This document shows, in pieces, positions 18,816 through 61,920 of a stretch of DNA of 64,000 nt; within the stretch, counting starts at the first letter, position 1, and each line of letters starts with the position of its first letter. Made by a program: the position numbers and the translations under genes. Below the pieces are notes generated by a model. That model was given only the letters and a program-made list of their open reading frames with translations. It made no database searches and had not been told where the DNA came from. Location: positions 163,728 to 227,727 of the forward strand of contig JADIYA010000007.1 in NCBI GenBank assembly GCA_016705545.1, given 5' to 3'. Source of the DNA: Flavobacteriales bacterium. GTDB taxonomy: Bacteria > Bacteroidota > Bacteroidia > Flavobacteriales_F > PHOS-HE28.

Positions 18816-21800
18816 ATGAAGCACCGAAACCCATTGATAACCCAACTCGTGCGATTGGGTTCATTGCTCCTGCTCCTAGCCATTGGCTTGAGTTCAGCTG
18901 CACAGCACCGGCACGACCCGGTGAAGCCACGCGCGCAGCATCCCGGCCAAGACCATAGCCACGACCACGAGGGCATCGATGCACTGCTGAACCGGCATGA
19001 TCAGCGCATCACCTTCATGAAGAATGGCGGGCAGTTCGGATCCACAGTACTCTACCGTGCCGATTTCCCGCTTGGCCAGGCTGTCGCCACCGACAAAGGC
19101 ATGGTGGTCACCGCCTTCGATCCCATTGAAGTGGACAAGCGCACAGCGGAAGGCTTCCGCATCGAGGAAGAGATGGCGCAAGGCCTTCCGATGCGCGAGC
19201 TGCAATGGCGCAAACGCGGCCATGCGTGGCGCCACCGCTTCGTGGGCGCATCGAGTGAGATGCGCATCGAAGCGCGGGACAAGCACGCAGAATTGACGAA
19301 TTACTTCGTTGGCGACCGCAGCGCGCTGGATGTGGCCAGCTATCAGGAGGTCTGGTACACGGGCATCTATCCCAACATTGATGCACGCTACTACCCGGCT
19401 GCGGATGGCTCGCTCGAGTACGACGTGATCGTGATGCCAGGGGGCGACCCCAGCGAAGTCGCCATCGCTCATGACGGCATCGAACGCATGCGCGTGAACG
19501 AGAAGGGCGAGCTGGTCATCGAGACGATACTCGGCGAGATGGCCCACCCCGCGCCGTACGTGTACCAGCGCAACAATGGCCGCGAAATGCGGATCGACGC
19601 GACTTACAAGGTGGACGGGAACGTGCTGCGATTCGCCCTCGGTGCATATGACCGCACGCAGCCACTAGTGATTGATCCCATCGCCATGCGGTGGGCCACT
19701 TGGATCAACACCAACAGCAGCAGCGATAACCACGGTCATTGCATCTGGGTAGATCCGACCGATGGCGCGATCTACGTCGTTGCACGCGTAACAGGAACCA
19801 CCGACCAGATCACGCCCGGCGCATTCGATGAGACCGCAAATGGCGCCCTGGAGATGATTGTTGGCAAATACCTCGAGCCTGCCGCAATCGGCGGTAGCGG
19901 CACCCGCGTGTGGCAGACCTACATCGGCGGCAACGGCGATGACAACCCGTACGCAATGGAGCAAGGTCCCGATGGCAACCTCTACATCACCGGCCAGACC
20001 AGCAGCACCAACTTCCCGCTCCTAGGAGGCACGGCCTTCAGCGGCAGCAGCCTGAATCAGCAGGCGCAGAGCGACATCGATGTCTTCGTGCTGAAGATCA
20101 ACACTGCCGGAAATTCGATCAAGGCTGCGGTGGTTGGCGGCAACGGTGCCGATAACAACTTCGACGTGCGGCTGGCCGCCAATGGCGACGTGTTCGTAGC
20201 CGGAAGCACAACCAGCACCAACTTGCTCACGCTGAACCCCGGCAGTGGTGCAAGCAACACCAACAATGGTGGAAGCGATGTCTTCCTCTTCCGCATCAAC
20301 CAAGACCTTTCATCATTGGTATGGATGCGCAACTACGGAGGCGGCGCAACTGACCGGGCCAGCATCATGCTGCACGACCCAGCCACCGGTGACCTTTTTG
20401 TAGGTGGAAATACCAGCAGCACGAACTTCCCGACAGCAAGTCCACGCCAGGGCACGCGGGGCGGCAATACGGCTGGCTTCCTACAGCGCCTCAATGGTGC
20501 CACGGCGGCTACCTCATGGAGCAGCTATTTCTCCAGCGCAGCCAGTCAGAATGCCAACCTGCTCTGCATGGAGTTCAACACCTCAAAGGATGAGCTCTTC
20601 TTCGGCGGCGTCACCAGCGGCCTCAATAGCGCCAACATCACGGCCGGATCATATGACACAAGTCACAATGGCAACAATGACTTCTATGTCGGTCGCATGA
20701 CTGTCGACCAGACGTTCATCGCCGGCACCTACATCGGCGGCTCTGGCAATGAAGTGAACATGATGGGCCTCAACACCGATCTGAACAACGACGCGTATGT
20801 ATTCGGCTACAGCGCCAGCACGAACTTCCCGGTGAGCGCCTCGCCCAACGTGCCGCTGCAGACCACCAACCAAGGCAGCAATGACAAGGTGTTCTTCAAG
20901 CTGAAGAGCAGCCTGAACCAGCTTGAGTTCAGCACCTACTATGGCGGCACCAGCGACGACTACGACCCCGTCGGCGAGCGCGGCATCAAATTCAACGACT
21001 GCCGCATCTACACCATCGTCACGGCACAGAGCAACAACATCCCGCTCACCCAAGGCGCGCTCAACACCACGAAGAACAGCCCGACGAACCGCTACGAACC
21101 GGGGTTGGTGGTGTGGGCCAACCCACCCGACCTGCTGGGCAACAGCATCACCTATCAAGGCGTGTCCATCTGCCCAGGCGCAACACCCGGTGACATCACC
21201 GGATCGGAGCCGAGCTATTCGTTGCCCACCATCGTCCGCAACAACTCCGCATCGGGTTATCCCGCTTTCGCCAGCGCCGCAACTTATCAGTGGCAGATCA
21301 GCCTCGATAGCCTCAATTGGACCGACATCAACGGCGCCACCGGCCAGAACCTGCCTGGCTCGCTGATCGGGGCGATTACGCAGGACACATACATCCGCCG
21401 CATCATCGGCGGTGATGCCTGCATCCTTGCGGGCGCGGCCGATCAAGTGGTGAAAGTGCAATTGATGACCGCCGGCGGCAGCGTGACCGACGCACTCTGC
21501 AACGGCGCCGCAACAGGCAGCATCGCGGCAACAGCCGATGGTCAGGCCCCTTTCACATACGTATGGAGCGACGGCCAGACCACGGAGACCGCCATCAACC
21601 TCGCTGCTGGCCCCTATTCGGTAATCGTGACCGACTTCAACGGCTGCAGCGCCTCGGCAAATTTCGTCGTTGGGCAGCCTGCACCATTGAGCGCCGATGT
21701 TAACACCATGCTTGATGCCTGCGCAACTGGCACAGGCAGCGCGACCGCCACTGGTACGGGCGGCACACCTGGTTATGGCTATTTGTGGAGCACCGGCACC

Positions 21801-24800
21801 ACCGGTCCGAACCTCACGAATGTGAGTGCTGGCGCATACTCCGTGCAGGTCACCGACTTCAACCAATGCAGCGCGGTGGTGCTGGTCAATATCGATGGAA
21901 CCTTGCCGCCCTCTGCAAACGCTGGCGACGACCTGGAGATCAACTGCACTACCGGAACTTCCGTGCAATTGAATGGTTCCAGCCAGACGCCAGGCGTGAA
22001 CTTCAGCTGGACCGGCCCTGGCATCGTCAACGGCGGCGGTTCAGCCAACCCTACGGTGAACGCACCCGGTACCTATACACTAACGGTCACCAATCCCCAG
22101 ACAGGCTGCACCGCGACAGATCAAGTTGATGTCACAGTAAACACGACTGTCCCCGGCGCCCAGGCCGCTGGCGGGACCATCACCTGCAGCAACGAGTGCG
22201 TGATGCTCAGCGGCACCGGCAACGGAAGCTTCGCATGGAGCGGCCCGAGCAACTTCAACAGCACCGAGCAGAACCCCACCGTGTGCGCCCCGGCATCTAC
22301 ACCCTCGTGGTCACCGGCAGCAACGGCTGCACCAGCACCGCCACCGCTGAGGTGGAGCAGGACACCGATGTCCCCGGCGCCCAAGCCGCTGGCGGGACCA
22401 TCACCTGCAGCAACGAGTGCGTGATGCTCACGGGCACCGGCAACGGAAGCTTCGCATGGAGCGGCCCGAGCAACTTCAACAGCACCGAGCAGAACCCCAC
22501 CGTGTGCGCCCCCGGCACCTACACCAAGCACCGCCACCGCTGAGGTGGAGCAGGACACCGATGTCCCCGGCGCCCAGGCCGCTGGCGGGACCATCACCTG
22601 CAGCAAGAGTGCGTGTGCTCAGGGCACCGGCAGGAAGCTTGCATGGAGCGGCCGAGCAACTTCAACAGCACCGAGCAGAACCCACCGTGTGCGCGGCACC
22701 TCCCTCGGGCGGCCCGCCCAGGGGGCCGAGTCCCGGCAGGGCGGACCCCAGCCCCACCACCACCGGTGGTCACCGGCAGCAACGGCTGCACCAGCACCGC
22801 CACCGCTGAGGTGGAGCAGGACACCGATGTCCCCGGCGCCCAGGCCGCTGGCGGGACCATCACCTGCAGCAACGAGTGCGTGATGCTCACGGGCACCGGC
22901 AACGGAAGCTTCGCATGGAGCGGCCCGAGCAACTTCAACAGCACCGAGCAGAACCCCACCGTGTGCGCCCCGGCATCTACACGCTCGTGGTCACCGGCAG
23001 CAACGGCTGCACCAGCACCGCCACCGCTGAGGTGGAGCAGGACACCGATGTCCCCGGCGCCCAGGCCGCTGGCGGGACCATCACCTGCAGCAACGAGTGC
23101 GTGATGCTCACGGGCACCGGCAACGGAAGCTTCGCATGGAGCGGCCCGAGCAACTTCAACAGCACCGAGCAGAACCCCACCGTGTGCGCCCCGGCACCTA
23201 CACCCTGGTGGTCACCGGCAGCAACGGCTGCACCAGCACCGCCACCGCTGAGGTGGAGCGCCACCACAAGGACAACCGGCCAGGCCGCTGGCGGACCATC
23301 ACCTGCAGCAACGAGTGCGTGATGCTCACGGGCACCGGCAACGGAAGCTTCGCATGGAGCGGCCCGAGCAACTTCAACAGCACCGAGCAGAACCCCACCG
23401 TGTGCGCCCCGGCACCTACACCCTCGTGGTGACCGGCAGCAACGGCTGCACCAGCACCGCCACCGCTGAGGTGGAGCAGGACAACGATGTCCCCGGCGCC
23501 CAGGCCGCTGGCGGGACCATCACCTGCAGCAACGAGTGCGTGATGCTCACGGGCACCGGCAACGGAAGCTTCGCATGGAGCGGCCCGAGCAACTTCAACA
23601 GCACCGAGCAGAACCCCACCGTGTGCGCCCCCGGCACCTACACCCTGGTGGTCACCGGCAGCAACGGCTGCACCAGCACCGCCACCGCTGAGGTGGAGCA
23701 GGACACCGATGTCCCCGGCGCCCAAGCCGCTGGCGGGACCATCACCTGCAGCAACGAGTGCGTGATGCTCACGGGCACCGGCAACGGAAGCTTCGCATGG
23801 AGCGGCCCGAGCAACTTCAACAGCACCGAGCAGAACCCCACCGTGTGCGCCCCGGCACCTACACCCTGGTGGTCACCGGCAGCAACGGCTGCACCAGCAC
23901 CGCCACCGCTGAGGTGGAGCAGGACACCGATGTCCCCGGCGCCCAGGCCGCTGGCGGGACCATCACCTGCAGCAACGAGTGCGTGATGCTCACGGGCACC
24001 GGCAACGGAAGCTTCGCATGGAGCGGCCCGAACAACTTCAACAGCACCGAGCAGAACCCCACCGTGTGCGCCCCGGCACCTACACCCTGGTGGTCACCGG
24101 CAGCAACGGCTGCACCAGCACCGCCACCGCTGAGGTGGAGCAGGACACCGATGTCCCCGGCGCCCAGGCCGCTGGCGGGACCATCACCTGCAGCAACGAG
24201 TGCGTGATGCTCACGGGCACCGGCAACGGAAGCTTCGCATGGAGCGGCCCGAGCAACTTCAACAGCACCGAGCAGAACCCCACCGTGTGCGCCCCCGGCA
24301 CCTACACCCTGGTGGTCACCGGCAGCAACGGCTGCACCAGCACCGCCACCGCTGAGGTGGAGCAGGACAACGATGTCCCCGGCGCCCAGGCCGCTGGCGG
24401 GACCATCACCTGCAGCAACGAGTGCGTGATGCTCACGGGCACCGGCAACGGAAGCTTCGCATGGAGCGGCCCGAGCAACTTCAACAGCACCGAGCAGAAC
24501 CCCACCGTGTGCGCCCCCGGCACCTACACCCTGGTGGTCACCGGCAGCAACGGCTGCACCAGCACCGCCACCGCTGAGGTGGAGCAGGACAACGATGTCC
24601 CCGGCGCCCAGGCCGCTGGCGGGACCATCACCTGCAGCAACGAGTGCGTGATGCTCACGGGCACCGGCAACGGAAGCTTCGCATGGAGCGGCCCGAACAA
24701 CTTCAACAGCACCGAGCAGAACCCCACCGTGTGCGCCCCCGGCACCTACACACCTGGTGGTCACCGGCAGCAACGGCTGCACCAGCACCGCCACCGCTGA

Positions 24801-27644
24801 GGTGGAGCAGGACACCGATGTCCCCGGCGCCCAGGCCGCTGGCGGGACCATCACCTGCAGCAACGAGTGCGTGATGCTCACGGGCACCGGCAACGGAAGC
24901 TTCGCATGGAGCGGCCCGAGCAACTTCAACAGCACCGAGCAGAACCCCACCGTGTGCGCCCCCGGCACCTACACCCTGGTGGTCACCGGCAGCAACGGCT
25001 GCACCAGCACCGCCACCGCTGAGGTGGAGCAGGACACCGATGTCCCCGGCGCCCAGGCCGCTGGCGGGACCATCACCTGCAGCAACGAGTGCGTGATGCT
25101 CACGGGCACCGGCAACGGAAGCTTCGCATGGAGCGGCCCGAGCAACTTCAACAGCACCGAGCAGAACCCCACCGTGTGCGCCCCCGGCACCTACACCCTG
25201 GTGGTCACCGGCAGCAACGGCTGCACCAGCACCGCCACCGCTGAGGTGGAGCAGGACACCGATGTCCCGGCGCCCAGGCCGCTGGCGGGACCATCACCTG
25301 CAGCAACGAGTGCGTGATGCTCACGGGCACCGGCAACGGAAGCTTGCATGGAGCGGCCCGAGCAACTTCAACAGCACCGGAGCAGAACCCCACCGTGTGC
25401 GCCCCGGCACCTACACCCTGGTGGTCACCGGCAGCAACGGCTGCACCAGCACCGCCACCGCTGAGGTGGAGCAGGACACCGATGTCCCCGGCGCCCAGCC
25501 GCTGGCGGGACCATCACCTGCAGCAACGAGTGCGTGATGCTCACGGGCACCGGCAACGGAAGCTTCCGGCATGGAGCGGCCCGAGCAACTTCAACAGCAC
25601 CGAGCAGAACCCCACCGTGTGCGCCCCGGCACCTACACCTGGTGGTCACCGGCAGCAACGGCTGCACCAGCACCGCCACCGCTGAGGTGGAGCAGGACAC
25701 CGATGTCCCCGGCCCAGGCCGCTGGCGGGACCATCACCTGCAGCAACGAGTGCGTGATGCTCACGGGCACCGGCAACGGAAGCTTCGCATGGAGCGGCCC
25801 GAGCAACTTCAACAGCACCGAGCAGAACCCCACCGTGTGCGCCCCGGGCACCTACACGCTCGTGGTCACCGGCAGCAACGGCTGCACCAGCACCGCCACC
25901 GCTGAGGTGGAGCAGGACACCGATGTCCCCGGCGCCCAGGCCGCTGGCGGGACCATCACCTGCAGCAACGAGTGCGTGATGCTCACGGGCACCGGCAACG
26001 GAAGCTTGCATGGAGCGGCCCGAGCAACTTCAACAGCACCGAGCAGAACCCCACCGTGTGCGCCCCCGGCACCTACACCCTGGTGGTCACCGGCAGCAAC
26101 GGCTGCACCAGCACCGCCACCGCTGGGTGGGCAGACATGTCCCCGCCCCAGCCGCTGGCGGGACCATCACCTGCAGCAACGAGTGCGTGATGCTCACGGG
26201 CACCGGCAACGGAAGCTTCGCATGGAGCGGCCCGAGCAACTTCAACAGCACCGAGCAGAACCCCACCGTGTGCGCCCCCGGCACCTACACCCTGGTGGTC
26301 ACCGGCAGCAACGGCTGCACCAGCACCGCCACCGCTGAGGTGGGCGCCGATTTCGATGCACCACAAGCCACACTGACCAGCACCCTGATCGGTTGCGAAG
26401 GCGAACCCGCAACGGTGAGCTACACCAGCACCAGCGCAATCGCCTCGGCTGAATGGTACAACGCCAATGGCCTCGTGGGCAGCGGCAGTTCCATCTCAAC
26501 GAGCACACCAGGTGCCTACACGCTCATTCTCACCGCGCTCAATGGCTGCACTAATGAATTCAGCATCGAGGTGCAGCAGAACACCGATTGTGACAAGGAC
26601 TGCGAGCCCTTGATCCTCACCTGCCCGTCTGATATCACGGTGGCCTGCGCCGACGACTTCTCACCCTTCGGGCTCGGTGGCGAACCTGTCTTCAATAAGA
26701 ACAAGGACGACGAATGCCCGGATGTCGTTCAGGCATGGTGGAGCGATGTGATCCTAAGCAACTGCCCATACGTGATCCGCCGCACCTGGCATGCTGTGGG
26801 TAGCGATGGCAGCACCGAGACCTGCACGCAGTACATCACCGTGATCGACGACGTGGCGCCCATCTTCTACAATGTGCCCGACGGCATCAACATCGCCTGC
26901 GATGCGGACATGGACGCGATCACCACGCCCGATGTGACTGCCTACGATGAATGCACCAAGGTGGATGTTGCCGTCTATCACAATATGGAAATCGTGCAAG
27001 GCAATTGCGCTGGCAACTACTCCATCATCCATACCTGGACATCGCAGGACCAGTGCGGGAACATCGGTACGGCCACTTGGACAATTGAGGTGATCGACAA
27101 CGTACCGCCTGTCATCAGCTGCCCGGTGGAAGACATCTCGGTAGAATGCAAGGATGTGCCGGAGCCCACCGACAAATGTGAAGCCTCGGACAATTGCTCA
27201 GCGGAAGTAACCATCACCGTGGAGGAGGAGAAGGGCGAACAGGATGAAGACGGCAAATACGTCATCACCCGCACCTACATCGCCATTGACGAATGCGGCA
27301 ACACGAGCACTCAGGTGCAGCTCATCACCGTGTGGTGCGACAAGAAAGAGGAAGACGGAAAAGGCCCGGTGCAAGCAGGCATCAAGATGGTAGCGAGCGC
27401 ATGGCCGAACCCCTTCCGCGAGGAGAGCAGCATCAGCATCACAGCGCAGGAGAGCGGACTTGTCCAAGTGATCGTCACTGACCTGCAAGGGCGCGTGGTG
27501 AGCGAGTTGTACAACGGCCATGTGGAGGCTGGCGCAATGGTGGTGCTGCCCTTCCGCCCAGCCGAGCGCAATGGCGGCGCCTATCTCTACCGCGTAAGGC
27601 TCAATGGCGAGGAACTCATGGGCCGCATACTGGCGCAGCCCTGA
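18816..27644 (+). CDS. Giant T9SS-secreted adhesin-like protein of about 2,900 aa if read continuously. It contains SBBP beta-propeller repeats, SprB repeats, about 19 tandem 74-aa Ig/PKD-like repeats and HYR-like repeats. The frame is broken many times inside the tandem array.
   Basis: Signal peptide MKHRNPLITQLVRLGSLLLLLAIGLSSAAQ at 18816. SBBP-type repeats: LYITGQTSSTNFP...DVFVLKINTAG, DVFVAGSTTSTNL...DVFLFRINQD. SprB repeats: CNGAATGSIAATADGQAPFTYVWSDGQTTETAINLAAGPYSVIVTDFNGC. The repeat array runs 22145..26340. HYR-like Cys-rich repeats span 26580..27300. C-terminal VASAWPNPFREESSISITAQ...YLYRVRLNGEELMGRILAQP is a T9SS type A tail. It is continuous from 18816 to about 22285 and from about 26340 to 27644, and fragmented into overlapping ORFs in all three forward frames in between. 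Confidence 0.75.
22145..26340 (+). repeat. Tandem array of about 19 near-identical 222-bp coding repeats (74-aa unit ...PGAQAAGGTITCSNECVMLTGTGNGSFAWSGPSNFNSTEQNPTVCAPGTYTLVVTGSNGCTSTATAEVEQDTDV), flanked by diverged edge copies.
   Basis: The 222-bp period is visible by eye. Interior units are about 97-100% identical, with recurrent variants (gacaccgat/gacaacgat giving D/N; agcaac/aacaac giving S/N). Indels cluster in C/G homopolymers (gcgcccccggcacc vs gcgccccggcatc). Copies at 22600..22800 and 25260..26200 are badly degraded. Confidence 0.9.
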
Positions 27645-30626: not shown

Positions 30627-33529
30627 ATGCCTGCACTGCGAATGCTCCTGCGCGGATTCCTCCGCCTCTTCGTCCCATGCTGCTGCTGTGCGGCGGCGGC
30701 TCATGCCCAGCAGTACAAGCTGCGCGGCATCGTGAGCGACGGCGCCACCGGTGAGACCCTCGTCGGCGCCAACGTGTTGCTCAAGGGCACCACAAACGGC
30801 ACGGTCACCGACATCGACGGGCGCTTCCAGTTGCTGGTGAGTGAGCTCCCGCCCTACACCCTTGTGGTGAGCTACATCGGATACACGCCGCTTGAACTCG
30901 TGGTGAAGAGCCTCGACAAGGAATTGAAGCTGAAACTCAGCACCGACCAGGTGCTGCTGGACGAGACCGAAGTCGTAGGCAGCCGCATCAGCGAGAAGCA
31001 GAAGCAGGCGCCGCTCACGGTGGAGAGCATGGACGTGATCGCCATCCGCGAAGCGCCCAGCGGCGACTTCTACGAGAGCCTCGGCACCCTCAAGGGCGTG
31101 GATATGACGGCAGCGAGCATGGGCTTCAAGGTACTCAACACGCGCGGCTTCAACAGCACCAGTCCCGTGCGCTCCTTGCAGCTGATCGACGGCGTGGACA
31201 ACCAGAGCCCCGGCCTCAACTTCTCACTGGGCAACTTCCTTGGCGCAAGCGACCTGGATGTGATGAAGGTGGACGTGATCGCCGGAGCAAGCACCGCCTA
31301 CTATGGCCCGGGCGCATTCAACGGCGTGGTGAGCATGACCACCAAGAGCCCGTGGAATTTCCCCGGCCTCAGCGTGAGCGCCAAGGGAGGTGAACGCGGG
31401 CTGCTTGAGGGAGCCGTTCGGTGGGCACAAGTCTTCAAGGACAAGGACGGCAAGCCGCGAGTCGCCTACAAGCTGAACATGTTCGGCATGCGTGCCGAGG
31501 ATTGGTACGCGCAGGATTATGGCGCAACGAGCAACAGCCCAACGCAACCGGGAAACCCTGGCCGCTACGATGGCGTGAACATCTACGGCGATGAGAACGT
31601 GACGGTGAACAACGACTTCAGTAACAACGCATTCGACCGCAGGACCTATCCCGGCCTTGGCTTATTCCTGCGACCTGGTTACCGAGAGGAAGACCTCGTT
31701 GACTACGGCACCACAACCTGAAGGCCGGCGCTTCGCTGCACTACAAGCTCACCGATAGCGTGGAGGTGATCGCAGCCGCCAACTACAGCACGGGCAGCAC
31801 GGTCTATCAAGGTGAGAATCGTTACCGCTTGGACGGCGTGCAATTCTGGCAACAACGGATCGAGCTGCGCAAGGAAGGCAAGTGGTTCGTGCGCGGCTAC
31901 TACACCGGCGAGGACGCCGGCAAGACCTACGACATCTTCACCACGGGCGTACGCCTCCAGGAAGCTGGCGGCGAAACGCGAGAGTGGAACGTCAAATACT
32001 TCACGCTGTGGGAGACCTGGATCAAGCCGCGCATCAACAACGAACGGCCTGATTTCATCACGGTGCAGGAGGCGCCCGGTGCGGGCATCACAACGCAAGC
32101 TGCCTACGATGCCTACATCCAGCAATTCGTCGCGGACAACAGCGGGCTATTCACTGGCTACCACAACGAGGTGGCCGATAGCATCGCCTTGATCGACAAC
32201 AACGAATTGAATCCATCCTACGTCGCGGGCACACAGCGCTTCAACGAGAAGCTCGATGAGATACGTGGCAAGCGCTTCACCGAAGGCGGATCGCTCTTCT
32301 ACGACCGGAGCGCGCTGGCGCACGCCATGGGCGAGTACCGCTTCAAGCCGAGGTTCGCAGAGATCGCCATAGGCGGCAGCTTCCGGCAGTACATGCCCAA
32401 CAGCGCGGGCACCATCTTCCGCGATACCGGCAATGTGGTGATCCGAAACAACGAATTCGGGCTCTATGCCGGCCTCGAGAAGAAGCTGATGAAGGAGAAG
32501 CTGAAGGCTACGGCCACGCTCCGAATGGACAAGAACCAGAACTTCAACGCGCTGCTCTCCCCTGCGCTGTCCTTCGTGTATGTGCCACGTCAGGACCGCA
32601 CCTTTCGGGTGAGCTTCAGCAGTGCGGTGCGCAACCCGACGCTCGCTGACCAGTACCTCTACTACAACGTGGGTCGCGCCATCCTCCTTGGCAATGTCGA
32701 TGGACAGTTCGAGGGCGGCCGCGACAGCCTGATCACCGTGGAGAGCTTCAACGATTACCGCTCCTCGCCCACCCTGCTCGAAGGCTTGGCAAAACTCGAC
32801 TACTTCAACGTTGACCGGCTGCGCCCCGAGCAGGTGCGCACCATTGAGGCCGGATACCGCGGAACGCATGCCGAGAAGTTCTACGTGGATGTGAGCGCCT
32901 ACAGCAGCTGGTACACCGATTTCATCGGTTACCTCATCGGGCTCAGCGCGCGCTTCGATCAGACCAATGGATTCCCCGTGGGCGGCCTTCAGGCCTACCG
33001 CCTTGCTGCCAACGCCACCACCACCGTGCGCACCCAAGGCGCCAACCTCGGCGTGAGCTACTTCCGCAAGCGGATGACCTACAGCGCGAACTACAGCTAC
33101 AACGAGCTCATCACCGGCGACGATGACCCCATCATCCCGGCCTTCAACACGCCGCGCAGCAAATTCAATGTGAGCTTTACCGGCCACGACATGAAGGTGC
33201 CCTTCAGCGGCAAGCCCAACCTCGGCTTCGGCATCAATTGGAAGTACGTGGAGGGCTTCACCTTCACCGGCTCACCGCAGTTCACCGGCCCTATCCCCAG
33301 CTACGACATGATCGATGCCCAGGTGAACGTCAAGTTCCCCGTGCAGCACCTCACGGTGAAGGTGGGCGGCAGCAATCTGTTCGGTTTCATCCCCATGTTC
33401 GAGGACTCGGAACCCAACAGGCCGCGGTGGGAACGCGTCTTCGACAATCAGGTGCGCATGGTGTACGGCGGCCCCTTCGTGGGAAGGCTGGCCTACGTGC
33501 AGCTGATCTATGAATTGGATAGGCGCTGA
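30627..33529 (+). CDS. TonB-dependent receptor with an N-terminal carboxypeptidase-regulatory-like domain. A single-base indel near 31712 splits the frame (ORFs 30627..31721 and 31760..33529).
   Basis: Signal peptide, CarbopepD_reg-like YKLRGIVSDGATGETLVGANVLLKGTTNGTVTDIDGRFQL, plug domain, and a beta-barrel ending in an aromatic C-terminus. At 31706..31716 ggcaccacaacctg is read where ggcacccacaacctg (GTHNLKAGASLHYKL) is expected. Confidence 0.8.
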
Positions 33530-36066
33530 TCACTTCAGCACTGCGAGCCGCTCCTCCAGTGCTTTGATCTTGGCCTCGGCGTCGGCCTTCTTCTTCCGCT
33601 CGGTTTCCAGCACCTGCGGCGGTGCTCCGTTCACGAATCGCTCGTTGCTGAGCTTCTTCTCCACGCTGGCGAGGAACCCACGCAGGTGCACGAGCTCTGC
33701 TTCAGCTTTCTTCGCTTCAGCCTCGGTGTCGATGTTGCCGCCGAGATCCACTGCATACTCGGTTGTTCCTACAAGGAAAGTGATGGAGCCTTCGCTGGCC
33801 TTCTCCACCTCGGCGATGGCCGTTACGTTGGCCAGCTTGTTCACCAACGCTGAAACGGCCGCACGCATGGGCGCAGCACCCTTGGCCAGCACTTCCAGCG
33901 GCGCCTTCGGACTCATGCCGCGCTCGTTGCGCACGTTGCGAACGGCAGTCACCAGGTCGAAGGCATGCTGCACCTCGGCATCGAGCCTCGCATCGCCCGC
34001 GCCGCCCTTGGGCCATGCAGCTACGACACGGTGGCCTCGTAGGTCTTACGATCGATCGGTTCGGCCACGCCCTCCCCCGCCGCGTTCTTCACGAAGGCAG
34101 TCTTGATGCTCTCCAGGTACCAGCTGCACAGGTCATCCCATACCAGCTTGTAGGTGGCCATGAGCGCCTCACTGATGCGGAACTGCGCAAAGAGCTGATC
34201 GATCTCGGTGGTGCTGCGTGACACACGGCTCTGCATCCAGGCGACAGCCGCCGCTGATGAAGCCGGTTGCGAACGGTCATCGACGCTCCAACCCTTCACC
34301 AAGCGGAAGGCGTTCCAGATCTTGTTGCTGAAGTTGCGGCCCTGCTCGCAGAGCGAATCGTCGTAGGGCAGGTCGTTGCCAGCGGGACTGGTGAGCAGCA
34401 TGCCCACGCGCACGCCATCGGCGCCGAACTTCTCGATCAGCTCCAAGGGGTCGGGGCTGTTGCCGAGGCTCTTGCTCATCTTTCGGCCCTGCTTGTCGCG
34501 CACGATGCCGGTGAGGTACACGTTCTTGAACGGCACCTCCTGGCGGTACTCCATGCCGGCCATGATCATGCGTGCCACCCAGAAGAAGAGGATTTCCGGC
34601 GCGGTGACGAGGTCGTTCGTAGGGTAGTAATACTTGATGTCGGCGTTGTTCGGGTCCTTGAAACCATTGAATACGCTGATGGGCCAGAGCCAGCTGCTGA
34701 ACCAGGTGTCAACGACATCCTCATCCTGCTTGATGCCGTTGGTGCTTTGTCCGGCAGCCTTGAATTGTGCCATCGCTTCGGCTTCGGACCTGCACACGGC
34801 GGCGTCACCCGCATCGTTGTACCATGCGGGCACTTGCTGCCCCCACCACAACTGGCGGCTGATGCACCAATCGCGCACGTTCTCCATCCAATAGGTGTAG
34901 GTGTTGGCGAACTTCTGCGGGTGCAGTTTCACCCGGCCATCCTTCACCACTTCCAAGGCGGGCTTGGCCAGCTCGCCCATCTTCACGAACCACTGCAAGG
35001 AGAGGCGCGGCTCAATAACAGCATCGGTGCGCTCGCTGTAGCCCACTTTGTTCTTGATGTCCTCGATCTTGACGATGTGCCCTTTCTCTTCCAGCTCCTT
35101 CACGATCTTCTTGCGCACAGCGAAGCGCTCCTCACCCACGTACAGCTGAGCGGCTGGGCTGAGCGTGCCATTCGGTTCCAGAATGTCGATGGTCTCGAGA
35201 TTGTGCTTCTTTCCCAGTTCGTGGTCATTCGTATCGTGCGCAGGCGTGACCTTCAGTGCACCGGTGCCGAATTCGCGCTCCACGTACTCATCGAAGATGA
35301 CAGGGATGCTGCGTCCGATCAGCGGTACCAAGGCGCGCTTGCCCTTCAGGTGGGCATAGCGCTCATCCTCCGGGTGGACCGCGATGGCGGTATCGCCGAG
35401 TATCGTCTCCGGGCGCGTGGTGGCTATGGTGACCCATTGCTCCGTTGCGCCATCAATCGCGTAGCGCACATGGAAGAGCCTTGAATTCTGCTCCTTCATG
35501 ATCACCTCTTCGTCGCTCACGGCCGTCAACGCCACCGGATCCCAGTTCACCATGCGCAGGCCGCGGTAGACCAGGCCTTTCTTATGCAGGTCGATGAAGA
35601 CGTCGATGACGGCCTCGCTGAGGTCGGGCTCCATGGTGAAGCGCGTGCGGTCCCAATCACAGCTGGCGCCGAGCTTCTTCAACTGCTCCAGGATCACGCC
35701 GCCGTACTTCTCCTTCCACGCAAAGGCATGCTTCAGGAATTCCTCACGTCCGATCGCGCTCTTCTTGATCCCTTGTTCGCCCAGCAGCCGCACCACCTTC
35801 GCTTCGGTCGCGATGCTCGCGTGATCGGTGCCGGGGACCCAGCAGGCGTTCTTGCCTTGCATGCGCGCGCGGCGCACCAGCACATCCTGGATGGTGTTGT
35901 TGAGCATGTGCCCCATGTGAAGCACGCCCGTCACGTTGGGCGGCGGTATCACCACGGTATAGGGCTCGCGCGCGTCGGGCACACTGCGGAAGTAGGCCTT
36001 GGCCATCCAATGCGGGTACCACCTGGCCTCGGCTTGCTGCGGATCGAAATGCTTGGGGATCTCCAT
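33530..36066 (-). CDS. valS: Valine--tRNA ligase. Reading frame is interrupted between 33973 and 34021.
   Basis: The N-terminal ORF 34021..36066 has HMGH ([17 protein letters not shown]), a KMSKS motif (KMSKSLGN) and editing and anticodon-binding domains. ORF 33530..33973 is the ValRS C-terminal coiled-coil domain (...[38 protein letters not shown]...). The two ORFs are separated by a frame break. Confidence 0.9.
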
Positions 36067-45039: not shown

Positions 45040-45075
45040 CTCTAGAACTGGAAGTAAATGAAGGGCACCATCTCC
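45040..45075 (+). repeat. Downstream copy of the 36-bp direct repeat, overlapping the stop codon and last 11 codons of the MBOAT gene.
   Basis: Exact match to 43441..43476. Confidence 0.9.
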
Positions 45076-46767: not shown

Positions 46768-48033
46768 TCATGGGGCCGTGCGCTTGAGGTGCTCCCCGTA
46801 CTTCTCGATCATCGCACCGAACAGCAGGTCGCCCAGCAGTTCGTAGCCCGCGCGGTTCAGGTGAACACGGTCGGCTTTGGCCATGCCCGCCTTCTCCCAG
46901 CGCCTGATGCTGGCCTCTCCGCCCATCACGCCCCAGCTGTCCCAGACACCCACGCCTTCATTGGCGCTGAGGCGCAGCATGGCATCGCGCACCGCACCCG
47001 CGTTCTTGTTCACGAAGCGCCGCTTCATGTAGCTGTCCGTGTTGGTGGTGAGCAGGATCGCGGCACCCGGTTCCGCGACGCGGATGCGGCGGATCAGCTC
47101 CCGGTAGTTGGCCTCATACCGCGCCGCGTTGAAGTCGGGATCATGCGCGTCGTTGATGCCGATGGAGAGGATGACGAGGTCCGGTCCCAGGAGCAAGCTC
47201 CTCGCTGAAGCGCTGGCAGCGCAGCCAACTCGTGGTGCTCGCGCCATTCACGCCGAGGGCATGCAGCACCACACCGGGGTCGTCGCCGTCGAGCACGATG
47301 CCGCGCAAGGTGAATTGCCGCTGCATGGAATCGGTACGCGCGATGCGCAGCTGCAGCGTGTCCACGTACCGGTCGTAAGTGAACTCGGTGAACCCGCCGG
47401 CTTCATCCACGCGACGAGCGATGCGCAGCGTGCTGTCCCGATCCCACGCGGTGACGGCGTAGCTGCTGTCCGGGCGATGCAGCACCCGCACGCGCCGGAA
47501 AGGATATCCCGCATGGATGTCTGTTCGGAAGCTCACCTTCAGCTCAGCGAGCGTGTCACGCGTGGTGGCGCTGATTCCGCGATGCCGAGGATGCTGCTGT
47601 CGGCGCGCGTGACATTGCGCACGGCAGTCCACTTGCCGGTGTACTCCGGCCGGTACCACCATGGCGTGTTGCTCTTCGCCATGGCATAAGGGAAGACGAA
47701 GCCGCGTCCTGCGCGCATACCGGGCGACAATGTCTGCAAGCGGTGCCGCAACTGCATGCTCCATTGATCGGCCTGCACATGCGAACCGCCGATATGAGCA
47801 ATGCTCATTCTCCCTTCACCCTCGAAGACCAGCTTGTCCAATTTGGCGTGAAAACGTGCCCACGCCGCGCTATCGCCTTTGAAGATGATCCGGTTCGCAG
47901 CGGCGTTCACGAAGGGAAGCTCCTTCACGCGCACCGGATTGCCCTGCGAATGGGCCGATGATGCCAGCAACATCGCCAGCAGTGCGATGAGGAGGCGGCT
48001 ATTGCTGCGCGGCATGATGATCGGCGTAGGCAT
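46768..48033 (-). CDS. SGNH/GDSL hydrolase family protein (DltD/PatB-like), with the frame broken in two places.
   Basis: Three consecutive minus-strand ORFs encode parts of one protein: 47539..48033 (signal peptide ...MSIAHIGGSHVQADQW..., the SGNH block I Ser region), 47141..47764, and 46768..47247 (...LVILSIGINDAHDP...DRVHLNRAGYELLGD, blocks III and V). Confidence 0.55.
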
Positions 48034-49475
48034 CGATCAGAGCGGTGTAGAAGAGCTCGCCCACTTTGCGCGCGCCCAACGGGCTGAAATGCGTGTAGTC
48101 CTCGGCAGCGAGCGGCGGATCGGCCTGCACCCAGCTCACCATGCTGTTGCGGCCGCCCATGGCGTCGTACATGTCCCAGAACACCGCGCCTTGCGCGAGC
48201 GTGTTGGCCTTCATCGCGTCGCGCACGTCCTCGAGGTAGGGCCGCGTCACATAGTCTTCGCCTTCTTTGATGCTCATGTCGCTGGGGCCGATGACGACCA
48301 CCGGAACACCGGGCGCCAGCTTGCGGAAGCGGCCGATCTGCGCGCCGAAGAAGCGGCCATACTGCTCCGCTTCCTCCTTGCTCTTCAGGCTGGGGCACGT
48401 TGCCGCCGTATTGGAGGATCAACCAGGAAGGACCGAGCTGTGCGTACATCGACGCTAATAGCCCCTTGGTCCTGCCGCTTGAATTCTAGCCCGCGGCGCC
48501 GCGTGCCGCGATGTTGTCCACAGCCACTCCATTGCGGCCATCGAGGGCGATACCGAAGACGTCGGGACTGTCTGTCCCTCGGAAGCGAAGGGTCAACTCC
48601 TTCGGCGGCGATTCGAGTCGCCATTCGCGCAGCAGCAGTTCGTTCGCGGGGGCGATGGTCTCACTCGTAAGCTCCACCCCATCGGCTTCCACCGTGATGG
48701 TCACAGGTGCGCGGTGCCAACCGAACCAGAGCTTGCACCGGCTCCACGCCTGCGCTTTCGCGTAGCACTTGCGGTCGGGCTTCAAGGTCACGAATGCCTC
48801 ATGCACGATGGTGTCCGGCACGATGGTGTCGTTGAGGATAGGTGAGAATCGGGAGAATGCGGAGAGTGCGCCGAACCGATCGTGGCGCTGCTCTTTGGGC
48901 TTCTTGCCCATCACGCTGTACCGATTCCAATCGCCGCCGAGTACGCGCTCCACGCTGAAGTGCGGCACAATGTCCGCCACGGCAATGAGGCCCGGGCCGT
49001 TGCCTCCGAATTGCACTTGCAGTTTGTTCCGCACGTATGCCGTGATCCGATCGCCCTCGATCTGCGAATCACCGTAGTGCAGGATGCGGACCGGCTTCGC
49101 CTGCGCCGCAGCCGACTCCAGATCAGCGAAGAATGGCTGAAGCACCGACGCACCTTGCGCGGGGAAATGCAGCTTGATGCGCTCCTCCAATGGCGCTAGA
49201 GTGCTCGGGTCGAAGGCTGGCACCGATGCGGCCGAATCAGCGGGCACTTCCACGGTGATCGTGTCCAATGCCGCCTCTGTTGAATCCGTGGCCACCGCCA
49301 GGATATCACTGATGTCCACGCGCACCTGTTCCTCGGGAAAGAGAACGTCGCGCCAGCGCGGCATGCGTAACGTGAGCCCGCCGATGGATAGACCGTCCTG
49401 TGGGATCAGCTGCCCGATGAGCGTTAGCAAAGCCAGCACCGCGAGCAGGAAAACGAGCACGCGTGCCGGACTCAT
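47999..49475 (-). CDS. Second SGNH hydrolase family protein (paralogue, DltD/Ape-like), with an in-frame TAG at about 48486 and an additional frame break.
   Basis: ORF 48486..49475 has the N-terminus MSPARVLVFLLAVLALLTLIGQL...RILHYGDSQIEGDRITAYVR (GDS block). It continues past the TAG as ...GLLASMYAQLGPSWLILQYGGN. ORF 47999..48301 (...VVVIGPSDMSIKEGEDYVTRPYLEDVRDAMK...DYTHFSPLGARKVGELFYTALIDAY) is the C-terminal block. There is an ATGA overlap with the mltD-like gene stop. Confidence 0.5.
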
Positions 49476-50956: not shown

Positions 50957-51050
50957 GGGGGCGCGTAAAGCAAGAACCGCGCGCACCTTGGAACACGCGA
51001 CGCAGCGTGGGCATTTTGCACGGATGGGTGTTGAGGGGGTGCAATGACCC

Positions 51051-52097: not shown

Positions 52098-52112
52098 GGT
52101 AGGATCATGGCG

Positions 52113-52580
52113 TTACCTCAATCGGTCCGCGCTGCGCACCAATTCCTCATCCTTCCGGATGGCCCGTTCGGCCAGCATGCCGAACACGATCACCGCCACC
52201 GGCAGGAAGAACGAGACTCCGTAACGCCCTTGAGCTCCTACGCCCAAATAAGCATCGATGGAATTGCAGGAGATGAACTGCAACACGCCTGTGAGCAGCG
52301 CTACCATCCACCCACCGCGCACGAGCCTTGCCTGACGCATTCGGTTCCTGAAGAGGAAGACCGCGGCCAGCAACACCAGCGCTACCGCGGAATGCAGAAC
52401 GGCATACGGTATCGGCAGGCCGATGTCCAGGATCTCGGTGCCATCAGAGGTTCTCATTCCCGAAACAAAGAAGCGCGCCTCCGATTCGCCCAGAGACCAC
52501 GAACGGACAGGAAAGAACCACGTGGCACCGCTGGATAGAGCGGCTAAGAAGAGGAAAGCGGATTGGATGCGCTGGATCAT
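52113..52580 (-). CDS. Hypothetical integral membrane protein; family not confidently identified.
   Basis: Internal ATG at 52580 (MIQRIQSAFLFLAALSSGATWFF...). Four predicted TM helices. Confidence 0.5.
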   Translation of the reverse strand: MIQRIQSAFLFLAALSSGATWFFPVRSWSLGESEARFFVSGMRTSDGTEILDIGLPIPYAVLHSAVALVLLAAVFLFRNRMRQARLVRGGWMVALLTGVLQFISCNSIDAYLGVGAQGRYGVSFFLPVAVIVFGMLAERAIRKDEELVRSADRLR

Positions 52581-52776
52581 GTGAAGAACCGGTGGGCAAA
52601 GATGCTCCCGACCGGGCTTGCGCATATCGGGGATCCGCTTACGTTTGCGCCGTACTGCATCAACGGGCTCCGTTCGGAGCCTGTGACCCGACTGAAATCT
52701 TACCGGATCGCATGAGGCCCTGAAGGGCTTTCCGCATGGCGCAATGGCGCCACTCCATTCACACTACCGCACGCAT

Positions 52777-54599
52777 ATGCACGACCAAGAGGCGCTCAGC
52801 GCCATGAAGCTCGCTGAGCTGAAGGACATCGCGAAGAAGCTAGGCCTGAAGAAGACCGACACCCTGAAGAAGCAGGACCTGGTGGCCAAGATCCTGGAGG
52901 CCCAAGCTTCCAAAAAGGGCGAAGGGGAAAAGGCCATTGGCCCAGCCTTCCGCGGCGACGATAAGGACCTCACCGACCTAGCCACTTCGGACGAACCCAG
53001 CGTTGTAGAGGATCCCGAACCGGAGCCTACGACCATGGGCGATGACCATGACGACGACGAGGAGGACGGTGATGACGATGAGGAGGACGATGATGACGAG
53101 GACGAGGACGAGACCAGCGAAACGGACGTGAAGGCTGCTTCCGGCGCCCCTCCACCGCCTCCAGAGGCTCCATCCGGTCAGAATCCGAACCGCGAGACCC
53201 GGCAGGACCGTTGGCGAGATCGTCGCGAGCGTCAACGGCAGGAGCGTCAACAAGGAGGCGAACAACGTCCGGCGCAGGAGCAGCGCCCGCAGCAGGAACC
53301 CCGCTCCAGAACAGGGCGATCGCCCACGCGAGGATCGGCGCGATGACGCCGCGACGACCGGCGCGATGATCGCCGCGAACCGCGCCAGGACCGTCCGCAA
53401 GGCAATGGCGGAGAGCAGCGGGTCGACCAACGCGGCGATCAGCAGCGGCAGGACCGCCCTTTCCAGCCGCCGCGCGAGCAGGTCACCTTCGACGCCTTCG
53501 TGGAATGCGAAGGCGTGCTGGAAGTGATGCCCGAAGGCTATGGCTTCCTGCGCAGCAGCGACTACAACTACCTCGCATCGCCGGACGATGTGTACGTGAC
53601 GCAGCAGATCATCAAGCGCTGGCCTGAAGCTCGGCGACACGGTGAGCGGCTTCGTGCGCCCGCCACGCGAGGAGGACAAGTTCTTCCCGCTGGTGAAGAT
53701 CGATCGGATCAACGGCCGCGATCCCGAATGGGTCCGCGACCGTGTCCCCTTCAAGTTCCTAACCCCCTGTTCCCCGACGAGAAATTCACCTCGCCGCCAA
53801 GGACACCAACATCAGCATGCGCGTGCTCGACCTCTTCGCGCCCATCGGCAAGGGACAGCGCGGCTTGATCGTGGCTCAGCCCAAGACCGGCAAGACCGTG
53901 CTGCTGAAGGACGTGGCCAACGCCATCGCCGCGAATCATCCGGAAGCGTACCTGATCGTGCTGCTCATCGATGAGCGCCCGGAGGAAGTGACCGACATGG
54001 CCCGCAGCGTGAAGGCCGAAGTGATCGCGAGCACCTTCGACGAACCCGCCTCACGCCACGTGGCGGTCGCCGGCATCGTGCTGGAAAAAGCGAAGGCGCT
54101 CACGGAATGTGGTCACGATGTGGTGATCCTGCTCGACTCCATCACGCGCCTGGCCCGCGCCTACAACACCGTGCAACCGGCCAGCGGCAAGATCCTCAGC
54201 GGTGGTGTGGACGCGAACGCGCTGCAGAAGCCCAAGCGCTTCTTCGGAGCCGCGCGGAAGATCGAGAACGGCGGCTCACTCACCATCCTCGCCACCGCTC
54301 TGGTCGATACCGGCAGCAAGATGGACGAGGTGATCTTCGAGGAGTTCAAGGGCACGGGCAACATGGAACTCGTGCTCGACCGGAAGATCAGCAACCGCCG
54401 CATCTTCCCCGCCATCGACATCATGAGCAGCGGTACCCGCCGCGACGATCTGCTGCACCACAAGGAAGTCCTCCAACGCACGTGGATCCTGCGCAAGCAC
54501 CTCGCCGACATGAACCCCGTTGAAGCCATGGAGTTCGTGAAGAAGCACATGGAGGGTACGAAGAGCAACGAGGAGTTCCTGGTCTGGATGAATGGTTGA
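52777..54599 (+). CDS. rho: Transcription termination factor Rho with a long low-complexity N-terminal insertion (acidic, then R/Q/D-rich). An in-frame TGA at 53344 and at least three indels interrupt the frame.
   Basis: N-terminus [43 protein letters not shown]. Insertion: ...[21 protein letters not shown]...[18 protein letters not shown]...[21 protein letters not shown]-binding OB region [34 protein letters not shown]. ATPase core 53817..54599: [32 protein letters not shown]...[16 protein letters not shown]. The frame switches near 53619 (extra t) and at about 53766 and 53784 (C-run deletions). Confidence 0.9.
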
Positions 54600-54747
54600 G
54601 GGTGATGACGGTTGCGCGCGAAGCCGCCGTTCGTCGACCTAGGGGCGGGGAGCCAGGAATGCGGCTTCGTGGTCTTGGCTGTTCGCATCGTCGTCATCGC
54701 TTTGCGATTGCCCACGGCCTGATGCCGCGCCACAGGGTGCCGATTTC

Positions 54748-55137
54748 ATGCTGGTGCATTTCCTGGCGATCGTGACCGTGGTCTTCTTCAATCAGCTGCG
54801 CTTCCTGCGCAAGGCGAAGGAAGACGCCGGATTCCCACATCTGGTGCGCGAGGGATTCAAGGGCGCTGCGATCTACGCGCTGATCATGCTGCTCTTCCTC
54901 TGGTGGTACTACCATGCCATCGAGACGGACGCCTTCGAGCGGCGGGTGGAGCAACTCGTGTTCAGTGCTGTTGAAGAAGGACAGGAGGAGCTTCGGGTGC
55001 GCCCGATGATCATGCGCTTCTTCACTCCATTCAACTACGCGAGCATGAGCTTCTTCGCGCTCCTGGCGGCAGGGGTCGCGAACGCGCTCATCATCGGTGC
55101 CATCCACCACAAGATCCTGCGCCGCGCTATGCGGTGA
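54748..55137 (+). CDS. Hypothetical small membrane protein; family uncertain.
   Basis: A 129-aa protein with three predicted TM helices (MLVHFLAIVTVVFF, AAIYALIMLLFLWWYY, FFALLAAGVANALIIGAI). Confidence 0.5.
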   Translation: MLVHFLAIVTVVFFNQLRFLRKAKEDAGFPHLVREGFKGAAIYALIMLLFLWWYYHAIETDAFERRVEQLVFSAVEEGQEELRVRPMIMRFFTPFNYASMSFFALLAAGVANALIIGAIHHKILRRAMR

Positions 55138-56497: not shown

Positions 56498-56611
56498 CTT
56501 CTCAAAGGCCAAGTGAGCATGTGCAACCGACCTCGCCGCGAAGCTGCGTGACACTGCGCAAGAGGAACTGCTCCGCGATGAATGATCGTGAACGATTCCG
56601 TGTGGAATGCG

Positions 56612-56770
56612 CTAGGACTTCACCAGCACCACTCTGCCATCGCGCATGAGGGCGATGGCAGTCCCATGCAGCTTGGCATCCATCCGGGCTGCTTTCGCGG
56701 CCCGTCGCATGGCCCGCCCGACTATCGCCGCGAACGTTTCCTGCTTCTTGGCGCGCTTGCGCTTTGCCAT
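56612..56770 (-). CDS. Possible small basic protein (52 aa). It is absent from the ORF track because it is under 60 aa.
   Basis: The reverse strand reads ATG MAKRKRAKKQETFAAIVGRAMRRAAKAARMDAKLHGTAIALMRDGRVVLVKS TAG. It occupies the otherwise empty intergenic space between mpl and the MBL hydrolase. No family recognised. Confidence 0.3.
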   Translation of the reverse strand: MAKRKRAKKQETFAAIVGRAMRRAAKAARMDAKLHGTAIALMRDGRVVLVKS

Positions 56771-56817
56771 GGCTGGTTAAGGTGCATCCTCCATTCAGCC
56801 GAGCGATCTTCGCCCCT

Positions 56818-61062: not shown

Positions 61063-61920
61063 CCCCGCAAAGGGCACGACGGCTCCGAACGGCCTGCGCA
61101 TCGCTTACGGCCTTGGCGTGCTTGGGCGCATGCTCGACTGGAACAGACGATGACGACCCCGTCGTTGCCCGCGCTTATGAGCAGCAATTGCGCTGGAGCG
61201 ACCTGCGCCAGCTCGTTCCCTTGGGCACGGAACCAGAGGACAGCGCAGCCTTGGTGCAGGCCTACGTGAACAATTGGCTCAGGCAACAGGTGGAACTGCG
61301 CCACGCTGAGCAGCAGCTCGCGGAGAACAGGAAACTCTTCGATGCCGAGCTGCGCGATTACCGCAATTCACTGCTGCTTCACGCATACGAGGAGGAACTC
61401 GTGCGGCAGCACCTCGATACGGCTTTCTCGGAGGGAGATATCGAATCGTACTACCAGGCCAACACCGACCGTTTCGTCCTCCGCGACGACCTGGTGCGTG
61501 CACGATGGTTCCGTGTCACCGAGAATGACCGCCGTGCACTCAAGCGCATCGAGGACCGTTTCCTCAGCGGGAAGGCCGACGACATGCGCGAGGTGGAGAT
61601 CCAGTGGCCATGAGGAGCATCACGATCACGGATCGCAGTGGAGCTGGACCTCCCTTTCGGAACTCCGCAACGAGGTGCCCATCGAGTCCATCTCCGCAGT
61701 GCCTCCTGCGGGAAGGCGGCTCACCTTGAGGGACGACGATGGCGCGTGGTTCCTGGACATCGTCGAACTTCGCCCCCGCTTGAGTCCATCGCCCATTGAA
61801 CTGGTGCGCCAGGACATCCGCTCCATCCTCCTGAACCAGCGCAAGCTCACCTTGATCGAGCGCATGCGCGAAGACCTATATCAACAAGCCCTAGCAAACG
61901 ATGCGATCGAAGCGCCTTGA
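61059..61920 (+). CDS. Hypothetical lipoprotein (SurA-N-like chaperone-associated), with a frame break near 61610.
   Basis: GTG start overlaps the upstream stop (GTGA). Lipobox-like LTALACLGACS. Frame 1 reads up to ...DDMREVEIQWP-stop at 61613 and continues in ORF 61342..61920 (...SELRNEVPIESISAVPPAGRRLTLRDDDGAWFLDIVELRPRLSPSPIELVRQDIRSILLNQRKLTLIERMREDLYQQA). Confidence 0.45.

Follow-up and report, generated by a model that had tools for sequence, protein, structure and literature searches.

Does a bacterium whose genome presents broken copies of the transcription terminator gene rho and the valyl-tRNA synthetase gene valS really carry these lesions, or were they introduced when its sequence was read and assembled? 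The question arises in a 64,000-nt stretch of a Flavobacteriales contig (hereafter, the window), in which the original prediction described eight interrupted genes (rho, valS, a TonB-dependent receptor gene, a DUF4397 gene, two SGNH hydrolase genes, a lipoprotein gene, and a giant adhesin gene) and attributed them to sequence errors, rather than to pseudogenes or phase variants, caused by single-base indels in C/G homopolymers. The open reading frames (ORFs) and the comparator alignments confirm that all eight genes are interrupted as described. The attribution to error is strongly supported by at least five independent same-species assemblies in which the genes are intact and by the signature of purifying selection, and we consider it very probable that the frameshifts are sequencing or assembly artefacts, not mutations of the organism. 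The proposed lesion type did not hold, given the loss of 103 nt in valS, the presence of three 2-nt deletions, and several single-base lesions outside runs. The features and lesions are compiled in Table 1.

Gene content and same-species comparators

The window has a G+C content of 61% and a gene set typical of Bacteroidota, encoding T9SS-tailed proteins, a TonB-dependent receptor, a Rho protein with a long disordered insert, and DUF4199 and DUF4293 proteins. Among the matches listed, the nearest named relatives are Flavobacteriales/Cryomorphaceae metagenome-assembled genomes, and the same-species matches come from wastewater metagenomes. When the large ValS fragment was used as a protein query, it retrieved an 879-aa ValS (P0121) that is 100% identical across the fragment and is encoded on a 564-kb contig of GCA_963851565.1 as well as on short-read (k141/k127) wastewater contigs. 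The comparison was extended by exact-sequence look-ups of the glyoxalase (14752-15165) and the HTH/S24 protein (57918-58742), both of which reached the same 564-kb contig and further short-read contigs; the MBOAT protein is one to two residues off the comparators and, hence, did not serve as an exact-match probe. Four loci (L169, L164, L165, and L175) jointly span positions 4753-64000 of the window except for 275 nt. More distant relatives were of lesser use: those of rho from the genome-contig scan are at most 86% identical among the matches listed, too distant for base-level comparison, and those of ValS from the metagenome-contig scan, at 85-87% amino-acid identity among the matches listed, make the deletion visible but not its exact size.

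The independent same-species assemblies are 99.5-99.9% identical to the window at the nucleotide level. For the GCA_963851565.1 contig, identity over 4753-64000 is 99.6-99.9% with one divergent tract excluded, amounting to 99.87% at 4753-22525 (22 mismatches), 99.64% at 34028-46066 (44 mismatches and zero gaps, that is, 12 kb free of indels), and approximately 99.7% at 47938-64000 without the divergent tract. The comparators represent different strains, 0.1-0.5% divergent from the window, so that any one lesion taken singly could in principle be a real strain-specific mutation. All nine genes found to be broken, the eight named above and a DUF4199 gene, are uninterrupted in GCA_963851565.1 and the short-read wastewater contigs, the intact products in GCA_963851565.1 being ValS of 879 aa, the TonB-dependent receptor of 962 aa, the DUF4397 protein of 802 aa, the SGNH hydrolases of 422 and 492 aa, Rho of 591 aa, the DUF4199 protein of 173 aa, and the lipoprotein of 244 aa. 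Thus, the comparison of rho and valS with close relatives, which the original prediction had proposed as a check, recovers both genes intact in same-species genomes. At least four other wastewater samples contributed short-read contigs, which match the reference at each lesion they span, and at lesions with several comparators, the comparators agree with one another and the window differs. A single comparator is available for the lesion at 7933, for the pair 47195/47578, for the group 48394-48486, and for each of 53305 and 53346.

Table 1. Broken genes, lesions, and associated features of the window (coordinates in nucleotides of the window)
Feature	Coordinates	Strand	Intact form or lesion	Comparator
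DUF4397 / T9SS-tail protein	6631..9038	+	802 aa intact; CCC->CC at 7933/7934	
Giant T9SS adhesin	18816..27644	+	DUF7948, SprB, and HYR-like domains; broken many times	
Tandem array in adhesin	22148..26343	+	19 near-identical 222-nt (74-aa) units; 4.2 kb	
TonB-dependent receptor	30642..33529	+	962 aa intact; split at 31711/31712, one A lost in GGCAC[A]CACAACC	
valS	33530..36066	-	intact same-species form 879 aa, 100% identical to the large fragment in the window	
valS lesion	34026..34028		104 nt replaced by 1 nt (G), net -103 nt	segment carried by 5 independent assemblies
SGNH/GDSL hydrolase 1	46768..48033	-	422 aa intact; -2 at 47195, CCC->CC at 47578	
SGNH/GDSL hydrolase 2	47999..49475	-	492 aa intact; -2 at 48394, +1 (C3->C4) at 48461, -1 (G, non-run) at 48486	
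rho	52777..54599	+	broken by five indels	
rho lesion 1	53305..53306		+1 insertion, CGCTCCAG vs CGCT-CAG; frame 1->2	L175
rho lesion 2	53344..53347		-1 deletion, T lost from GATGA[T]CGCC, within extra 24-nt RRDDRRDD unit	L082
rho lesion 3	53617..53621		-2 deletion and adjacent substitutions, AAGCGCT--GGCC vs AAGCAATACGGCC; left border of divergent tract	
rho lesion 4	53763..53767		C6->C5	
rho lesion 5	53789..53790		CCC->CC	
Shredded patch	54611..54720		intergenic and DUF4199 5' end; deletions of 1, 1, 7, 18, 6, and 5 nt and ~15 substitutions	
DUF4199 gene	~54640-55137	+	5' end in shredded patch; N-terminal helix in different frame	
Lipoprotein, no Pfam match	61113..61920	+	244-269 aa intact; -1 at 61604, -1 at 61644 (TT->T)	

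Lesions in valS and rho

On the minus strand, valS is divided into ORFs 34021-36111 and 33530-33973, consistent with the split at 33973..34021 that had been read from the sequence. The lesion takes 34 codons, and with them the conserved LLHPFMPFLSEEVWH motif, out of the anticodon-binding domain and shifts the frame, so that the Pfam Anticodon_1 domain is cut at position 54 of 148. This is a non-homopolymer event. A deletion size of 97 nt, obtained against the relative L086, is superseded by the 103 nt given by the same-species comparison, and a repeat-mediated deletion was considered and dropped: a 6-nt CGTAGC flanks the lost segment, but the junction does not cleanly match such an event. The gene valS is universally essential, and the window contains no second copy. 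That all or many of the lesions are genuine and mark a defective activated-sludge lineage living with broken valS and rho, whether by cross-feeding, through a second copy elsewhere, or as a hypermutator subpopulation, is in our assessment extremely improbable.

The rho gene is represented by four ORFs, 52744/52777-53346 and 53500-53868 in one frame, 53642-53974 in the second, and 53817-54599 in the third, with a TGA at 53344-53346 between the two same-frame ORFs; the ORF listing and the sequence itself thus bear out the earlier description of four ORFs and an in-frame TGA at 53344. When the codon usage of the window's long ORFs was used to train a Viterbi segmentation, five frame changes emerged in rho. 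In a protein search, the 260-aa C-terminal Rho fragment has relatives at 93-97% identity, and an exact look-up of this fragment gave no match elsewhere, as expected if it does not exist as a gene in other assemblies. The first nucleotide comparison, with the contigs of three relatives (L081, L082, and L083), revealed the missing T at 53346, the 2-nt deletion with adjacent substitutions at 53620, and the shortened C runs at 53763-53767 (C6 to C5) and 53789-53790 (CCC to CC). The relatives' contigs are themselves flawed in rho, with a 13-nt deletion in L081 and a run of N in L082, and all short-read contigs break in the repetitive disordered region of Rho. The remaining event, a +1, might seem to be one C too many in the C4 run at 53299-53302, but its position is 53305/53306 when the same-species genome is aligned.

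Deleting one base and supplying 1 + 2 + 1 + 1 at the five sites yields an uninterrupted ORF of 608 aa, which can be aligned over its full length with the 591-aa Rho of GCA_963851565.1 at ~98% identity, differing by one additional RRDDRRDD unit and 11 residues; the codon differences comprise 50 synonymous and 11 non-synonymous changes. The TGA lies within a 40-nt out-of-frame stretch bounded by the inserted base at 53305 and the deleted one at 53346. Because it vanishes once this flanking pair is repaired, it is neither a nonsense mutation nor a recoding signal, which argues against a programmed frameshift or TGA read-through in rho.

The 3' part of rho lies in a tract of a different character. 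Within the 1.1 kb between 53600 and 54720, we counted 77 of the 126 mismatches to the same-species genomes, a divergence of ~7% compared with ~0.3% elsewhere. The tract is bordered by the 2-nt deletion at 53620 on the left and by a shredded patch on the right, and includes the two C-run deletions, with the rho lesions at 53305 and 53346 located upstream of it, the latter inside a 24-nt repeat unit of the disordered region. The differences in the tract are mostly synonymous and, therefore, represent a genuine, selected allele, acquired either by recombination in the strain or through a consensus dominated by the reads of a co-occurring relative. The rho-DUF4199 tract and the gain or loss of the 24-nt RRDDRRDD unit are likely genuine recombination and repeat polymorphisms, independent of the errors. 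The lesions at the tract borders and inside it suggest that, in addition to repeats, mixed strains led to consensus failure.

Other broken genes and the adhesin array

The base-level reconstructions offered originally proved correct at three of four sites, namely, the two C-run deletions in rho and the CCC to CC change at 7933 in the DUF4397 gene; in the TonB-dependent receptor gene, the reconstruction called for a missing C, but the base actually lost is an A, in ggcac(a)cacaacc. The interruption of the lipoprotein gene near 61610 is likewise real in the sequence as given (at 61604 and 61644), although the label 'SurA-N-like' finds no support in Pfam. The DUF4199 gene was absent from the original list and is the ninth broken gene. 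The patch at its 5' end was measured against six assemblies, which are identical to each other there, and a second shredded patch is found at 26125-26150, inside the adhesin array. With many deletions of 1-18 nt packed into ~100 nt, these two patches look like local consensus failure rather than mutation.

Several other candidates were examined and set aside. Approximately ten further same-strand frame changes flagged by the codon-model Viterbi scan correspond, according to Pfam, to ordinary gene boundaries (RecF/DciA, glyoxalase, DinB/DUF2214, recombinase/Omp28, and sigma factor). A -1/+1 pair at 63565/63576 relative to L081 turned out, upon inspection of the codons, to be an alignment artefact of four synonymous changes, and the indels at 57872 and 57918 relative to the same contig are between-species intergenic differences that are absent in the comparison with the same-species genome.

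The adhesin gene stands apart by the number of its lesions. Compared with the unit consensus, its tandem array contains 33 deletion events, 8 insertion events, and 19 substitutions (41 indels vs 19 substitutions). In 8 of 18 units, GCCCCCGG is shortened to GCCCCGG, one C short at the same C5 run each time. The array of GCA_963851565.1 consists of 18 units spaced by exactly 222 nt save for one spacing of 223 nt, whereas the window retains the 222-nt spacing in only 5 of 16 measurable cases. In short-read contigs of the adhesin locus, the array is collapsed to a single unit. Since short reads collapse an array that is resolved here in a contig of at least 64 kb, the window must derive from long reads, a conclusion reached indirectly.

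Slipped-strand switching deserves consideration because the products of several broken genes (the adhesin, the TonB-dependent receptor, and the DUF4397 protein) are surface or T9SS proteins, and the site hit repeatedly in the adhesin gene is a run of C. In Neisseria, Haemophilus, and Campylobacter, phase-variable contingency loci contain homopolymeric tracts in genes for surface proteins, and the changes in C/G-run length in the surface-protein genes of the window are reminiscent of these. Unlike in such loci, the tracts of the window are only 2-6 nt long, too short for slipped-strand switching, the lesions are multiple and located mid-gene, and cytoplasmic housekeeping genes are broken as well. 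Furthermore, the conspecific and related genomes have plain ORFs at every site, with no conserved frameshift site. That recoding in rho or phase variation at the C runs of surface genes accounts for the lesions is, in our view, scarcely conceivable.

Lesion spectrum and the origin of the frameshifts

To characterize the lesions as a set, we compiled a census of the unique sequence, covering 54,770 compared bases with the array excluded. It comprises 21 indel events, of which 19 are deletions and 2 are insertions (binomial p = 2e-4); the only ones that preserve the frame are the 18-nt and 6-nt deletions of the patch. Three lesions are 2-nt deletions (47195, 48394, and 53620). Among the 13 single-base events, five fall in runs of at least 3 nt, all of them C/G (7933, 47578, 48461, 53763, and 53789), which, with such runs occupying 9.8% of positions, is an ~4-fold enrichment (p = 0.006), and single-base lesions outside runs occur at 31711, 48486, 53305, 53346, and 61604. 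Altogether, 16 of the 21 events lie outside runs of at least 3 nt, so that short C/G runs are one favoured lesion context but not the rule. Long runs were nearly always correct: 46 of the 47 runs of at least 5 nt in the 54.8 kb of unique sequence have the reference length, including a G8 at 56487, and shortening is frequent only in the array, at the C5 sites described above.

The systematic homopolymer-length signature posited by the original prediction is, therefore, present as an enrichment of C/G runs, and the 16 events outside runs together with the correct long runs contradict it as a general description. Pure homopolymer-length miscalling as the explanation of everything could draw on the five unique-sequence lesions in C/G runs and on the repeated shortening of one C5 run in the array. 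We nevertheless regard it as very unlikely, because most of the unique-sequence events, among them the 103-nt loss in valS, the three 2-nt deletions, and the patch deletions of up to 18 nt, are of another kind, and the long runs, up to the G8, are almost all intact.

The picture given by the substitutions differs from that of the indels. Compared with the same-species genomes, the window has 53 synonymous and 18 non-synonymous substitutions (75% synonymous), and 55 of the 71 coding differences from the same-species genome are at third codon positions, indicating purifying selection on the genes. With respect to base substitutions, the window sequence is of good accuracy. No substitution-derived stop was found in any broken gene, every stop being caused by an indel.

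These observations bear directly on the possibility that the lesions are genuine and the window belongs to a decaying lineage, a hypermutator or one that has recently become dependent on a host or community, with nine real pseudogenes. The lesions do bunch within genes whose neighbours are intact (five in rho, three in the second SGNH gene, and two each in the first SGNH gene and the lipoprotein gene), and there is nothing abnormal per se about the ratio of indels to substitutions, which is ~1 to 10 once array and patch are set aside. Pseudogene-rich genomes under reductive evolution, such as those of Mycobacterium leprae and Sodalis glossinidius, resemble the window in having several frameshifts per gene next to intact neighbours. 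In contrast to these genomes, indispensable genes are broken in the window, nonsense substitutions are lacking, dN/dS is low rather than near 1, as relaxed selection would have it, and the lesions are not shared with conspecifics that are 99.5-99.9% identical. Decay would also have to have taken from an indispensable gene, valS, which it should have spared, 34 anticodon-binding-domain codons and its frame, to have broken genes that are intact in every other assembly of the species, to have packed small deletions into ~100 nt in an unnatural mutation pattern, and to have placed 41 indels in an array of which the sister assembly has a near-perfect version. Twenty-one mostly frame-destroying indels and ~40 more in the adhesin, in genes that nonetheless bear the mark of purifying selection, form a pattern unexpected for true decay, and we deem nine real pseudogenes highly improbable.

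Assembly error, in contrast, accommodates most of the observations. The lesions are absent from the independent same-species assemblies; the spectrum is dominated by indels, biased toward deletions, and accompanied by few substitution errors, in the unique sequence and in the array alike; the array indirectly implies a long-read contig; and the errors concentrate where polishing is unreliable, with 41 events in the array and with three of the five rho lesions as well as a patch inside or bordering the divergent tract. The contig would then be the product of a long-read assembly of a wastewater Flavobacteriales population, the platform being deduced, and its consensus would have retained deletion-biased indel errors wherever correction or polishing failed, a polishing history that is likewise deduced. 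The presumed sites of failure are the 4.2-kb array, the 1.1-kb strain-divergent tract (~7%), the two poor-consensus patches, and a few scattered sites, with the 103 nt of valS lost in one event. Two features count against an error origin: the 103-nt and 2-nt deletions are unlike the classic homopolymer error, and several lesions are clustered per gene, which is also seen in true pseudogenes. Furthermore, the correct long runs in the unique sequence would require the added assumption of partial polishing.

Residual errors of long-read assemblies are described as fragmenting genes, with short-read polishing failing in repeats (PMC8812927, PMC9262707, and PMC12007338); after such polishing, long-read errors are reported to be fixed in unique sequence and to persist in repeats (PMC8812927; see also PMC9262707 and PMC12007338), which matches the contrast between the unique sequence and the array of the window. 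Among bacterial and metagenomic Nanopore or PacBio CLR assemblies, those with such residual errors (PMC8812927, Polypolish; PMC9262707, Sereika et al. 2022; PMC12007338, Kastor) are the closest known counterpart, and the window resembles them in its deletion-biased frameshifts, the enrichment of lesions in G/C homopolymers, their concentration in a tandem repeat where short reads cannot be placed, the appearance of essential genes as 'pseudogenes', the accurate substitutions, and the intact genes of better same-species assemblies. It differs from these assemblies in that its long unique-sequence homopolymers are almost all correct, and the 103-nt deletion and the pair of shredded patches do not look like simple homopolymer error. 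Such events suggest that the consensus failed locally, through low coverage or strain mixing.

For annotation, the consequences are tangible. Nine of the ~47 genes of the window, approximately one in five, would be annotated as pseudogenes or fragments, and the falsely broken valS and rho feed into inferences on completeness, essentiality, and metabolism. A polisher or an annotation rule restricted to homopolymers would miss most of the errors, namely, the 103-nt deletion in valS, the 2-nt deletions, and the shredded patches. Nothing in this is biologically new, and no gene decay, phase variation, or recoding is to be reported from the window; its value is practical, as a warning for annotation. 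GCA_963851565.1 provides an intact same-species reference that can be used for reference-guided repair. As a minor observation, a small number of lesions (53346, 25498, and 25639) are located at Dam (GATC) or Dcm (CCWGG) motifs, with ~5.7% of positions lying within 1 nt of such a motif.

Divergence and repeat variation around rho

A 1.1-kb tract covers much of rho and reaches into the DUF4199 gene (see the table). Six assemblies that match the window at ~99.7% identity elsewhere show ~7% divergence from it here. Within rho, the codon differences in this comparison comprise 50 synonymous and 11 non-synonymous changes, and both borders of the tract carry assembly lesions. The tract represents either a genuine product of recombination or a chimeric consensus. 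The DUF4199 gene is broken too: following the six-deletion patch, its N-terminal transmembrane helix lies in another frame. This break was missing from the list of interrupted genes in the original prediction.

Features discussed in this section and below, with window coordinates
Feature	Position	Description
Adhesin gene	18816-27644
Tandem array	22148-26343	Within adhesin gene
Aberrant array unit	22519-22754	Deletions of 36 nt (one) and 1 nt (several); G+C-rich insertion of 51 nt
SpecificRecomb gene	36151-38163	670-aa protein; full-length match to Pfam PF10136 (E = 8e-179)
PKD-domain gene	43477-45039	492-aa ORF; T9SS-tailed protein
Repeat unit in rho	53336-53358	Extra 24-nt unit encoding RRDDRRDD, in disordered insert of Rho
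Divergent tract	53600-54720	3' two-thirds of rho, intergenic region and DUF4199 5' end
DUF4199 gene	54611-55137	Broken; interval includes patch of six deletions
G8 run	56487-56494	Longest homopolymer of the window; 5' end of Mur-ligase (mpl-like) gene, minus strand

The RRDDRRDD unit is found in the window, minus one base, and in L082, a related-species metagenome contig, but is missing from the same-species assembly GCA_963851565.1; this looks like a copy-number polymorphism of a repeat in the disordered region of Rho. Five short-read contigs (L176, L178, L179, L081 and L082) each begin or break in this region. Two of these, the JGI metagenome contigs from a related species, have defects of their own in the same part of the gene, namely, a 13-nt deletion (L081:387) and a run of Ns (L082:430-439), so that rho is evidently a difficult target for assembly from mixed populations.

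The adhesin array

The array consists of 19 near-identical tandem units of 222 nt (74 aa) each, compared to 18 in GCA_963851565.1, where one unit is 223 nt long and accordingly introduces a single frameshift of that assembly's own. The aberrant unit has no counterpart in the GCA_963851565.1 array, in which the units are spaced at 222 nt. In short-read assemblies, the array is reduced to one unit, yielding a predicted protein of 1613 aa.

An intact neighbor of valS, strain-level gene content and the longest homopolymer

The SpecificRecomb gene, which adjoins valS, is unbroken in the window, and its position is conserved among conspecifics. The PKD-domain gene is present in GCA_963851565.1 (locus L164) but missing from the same-species short-read contig L165, which is a gene-content difference between strains. 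The length of the G8 run is unchanged in the same-species genome, and L081 carries GGGGTGGG at the corresponding position.
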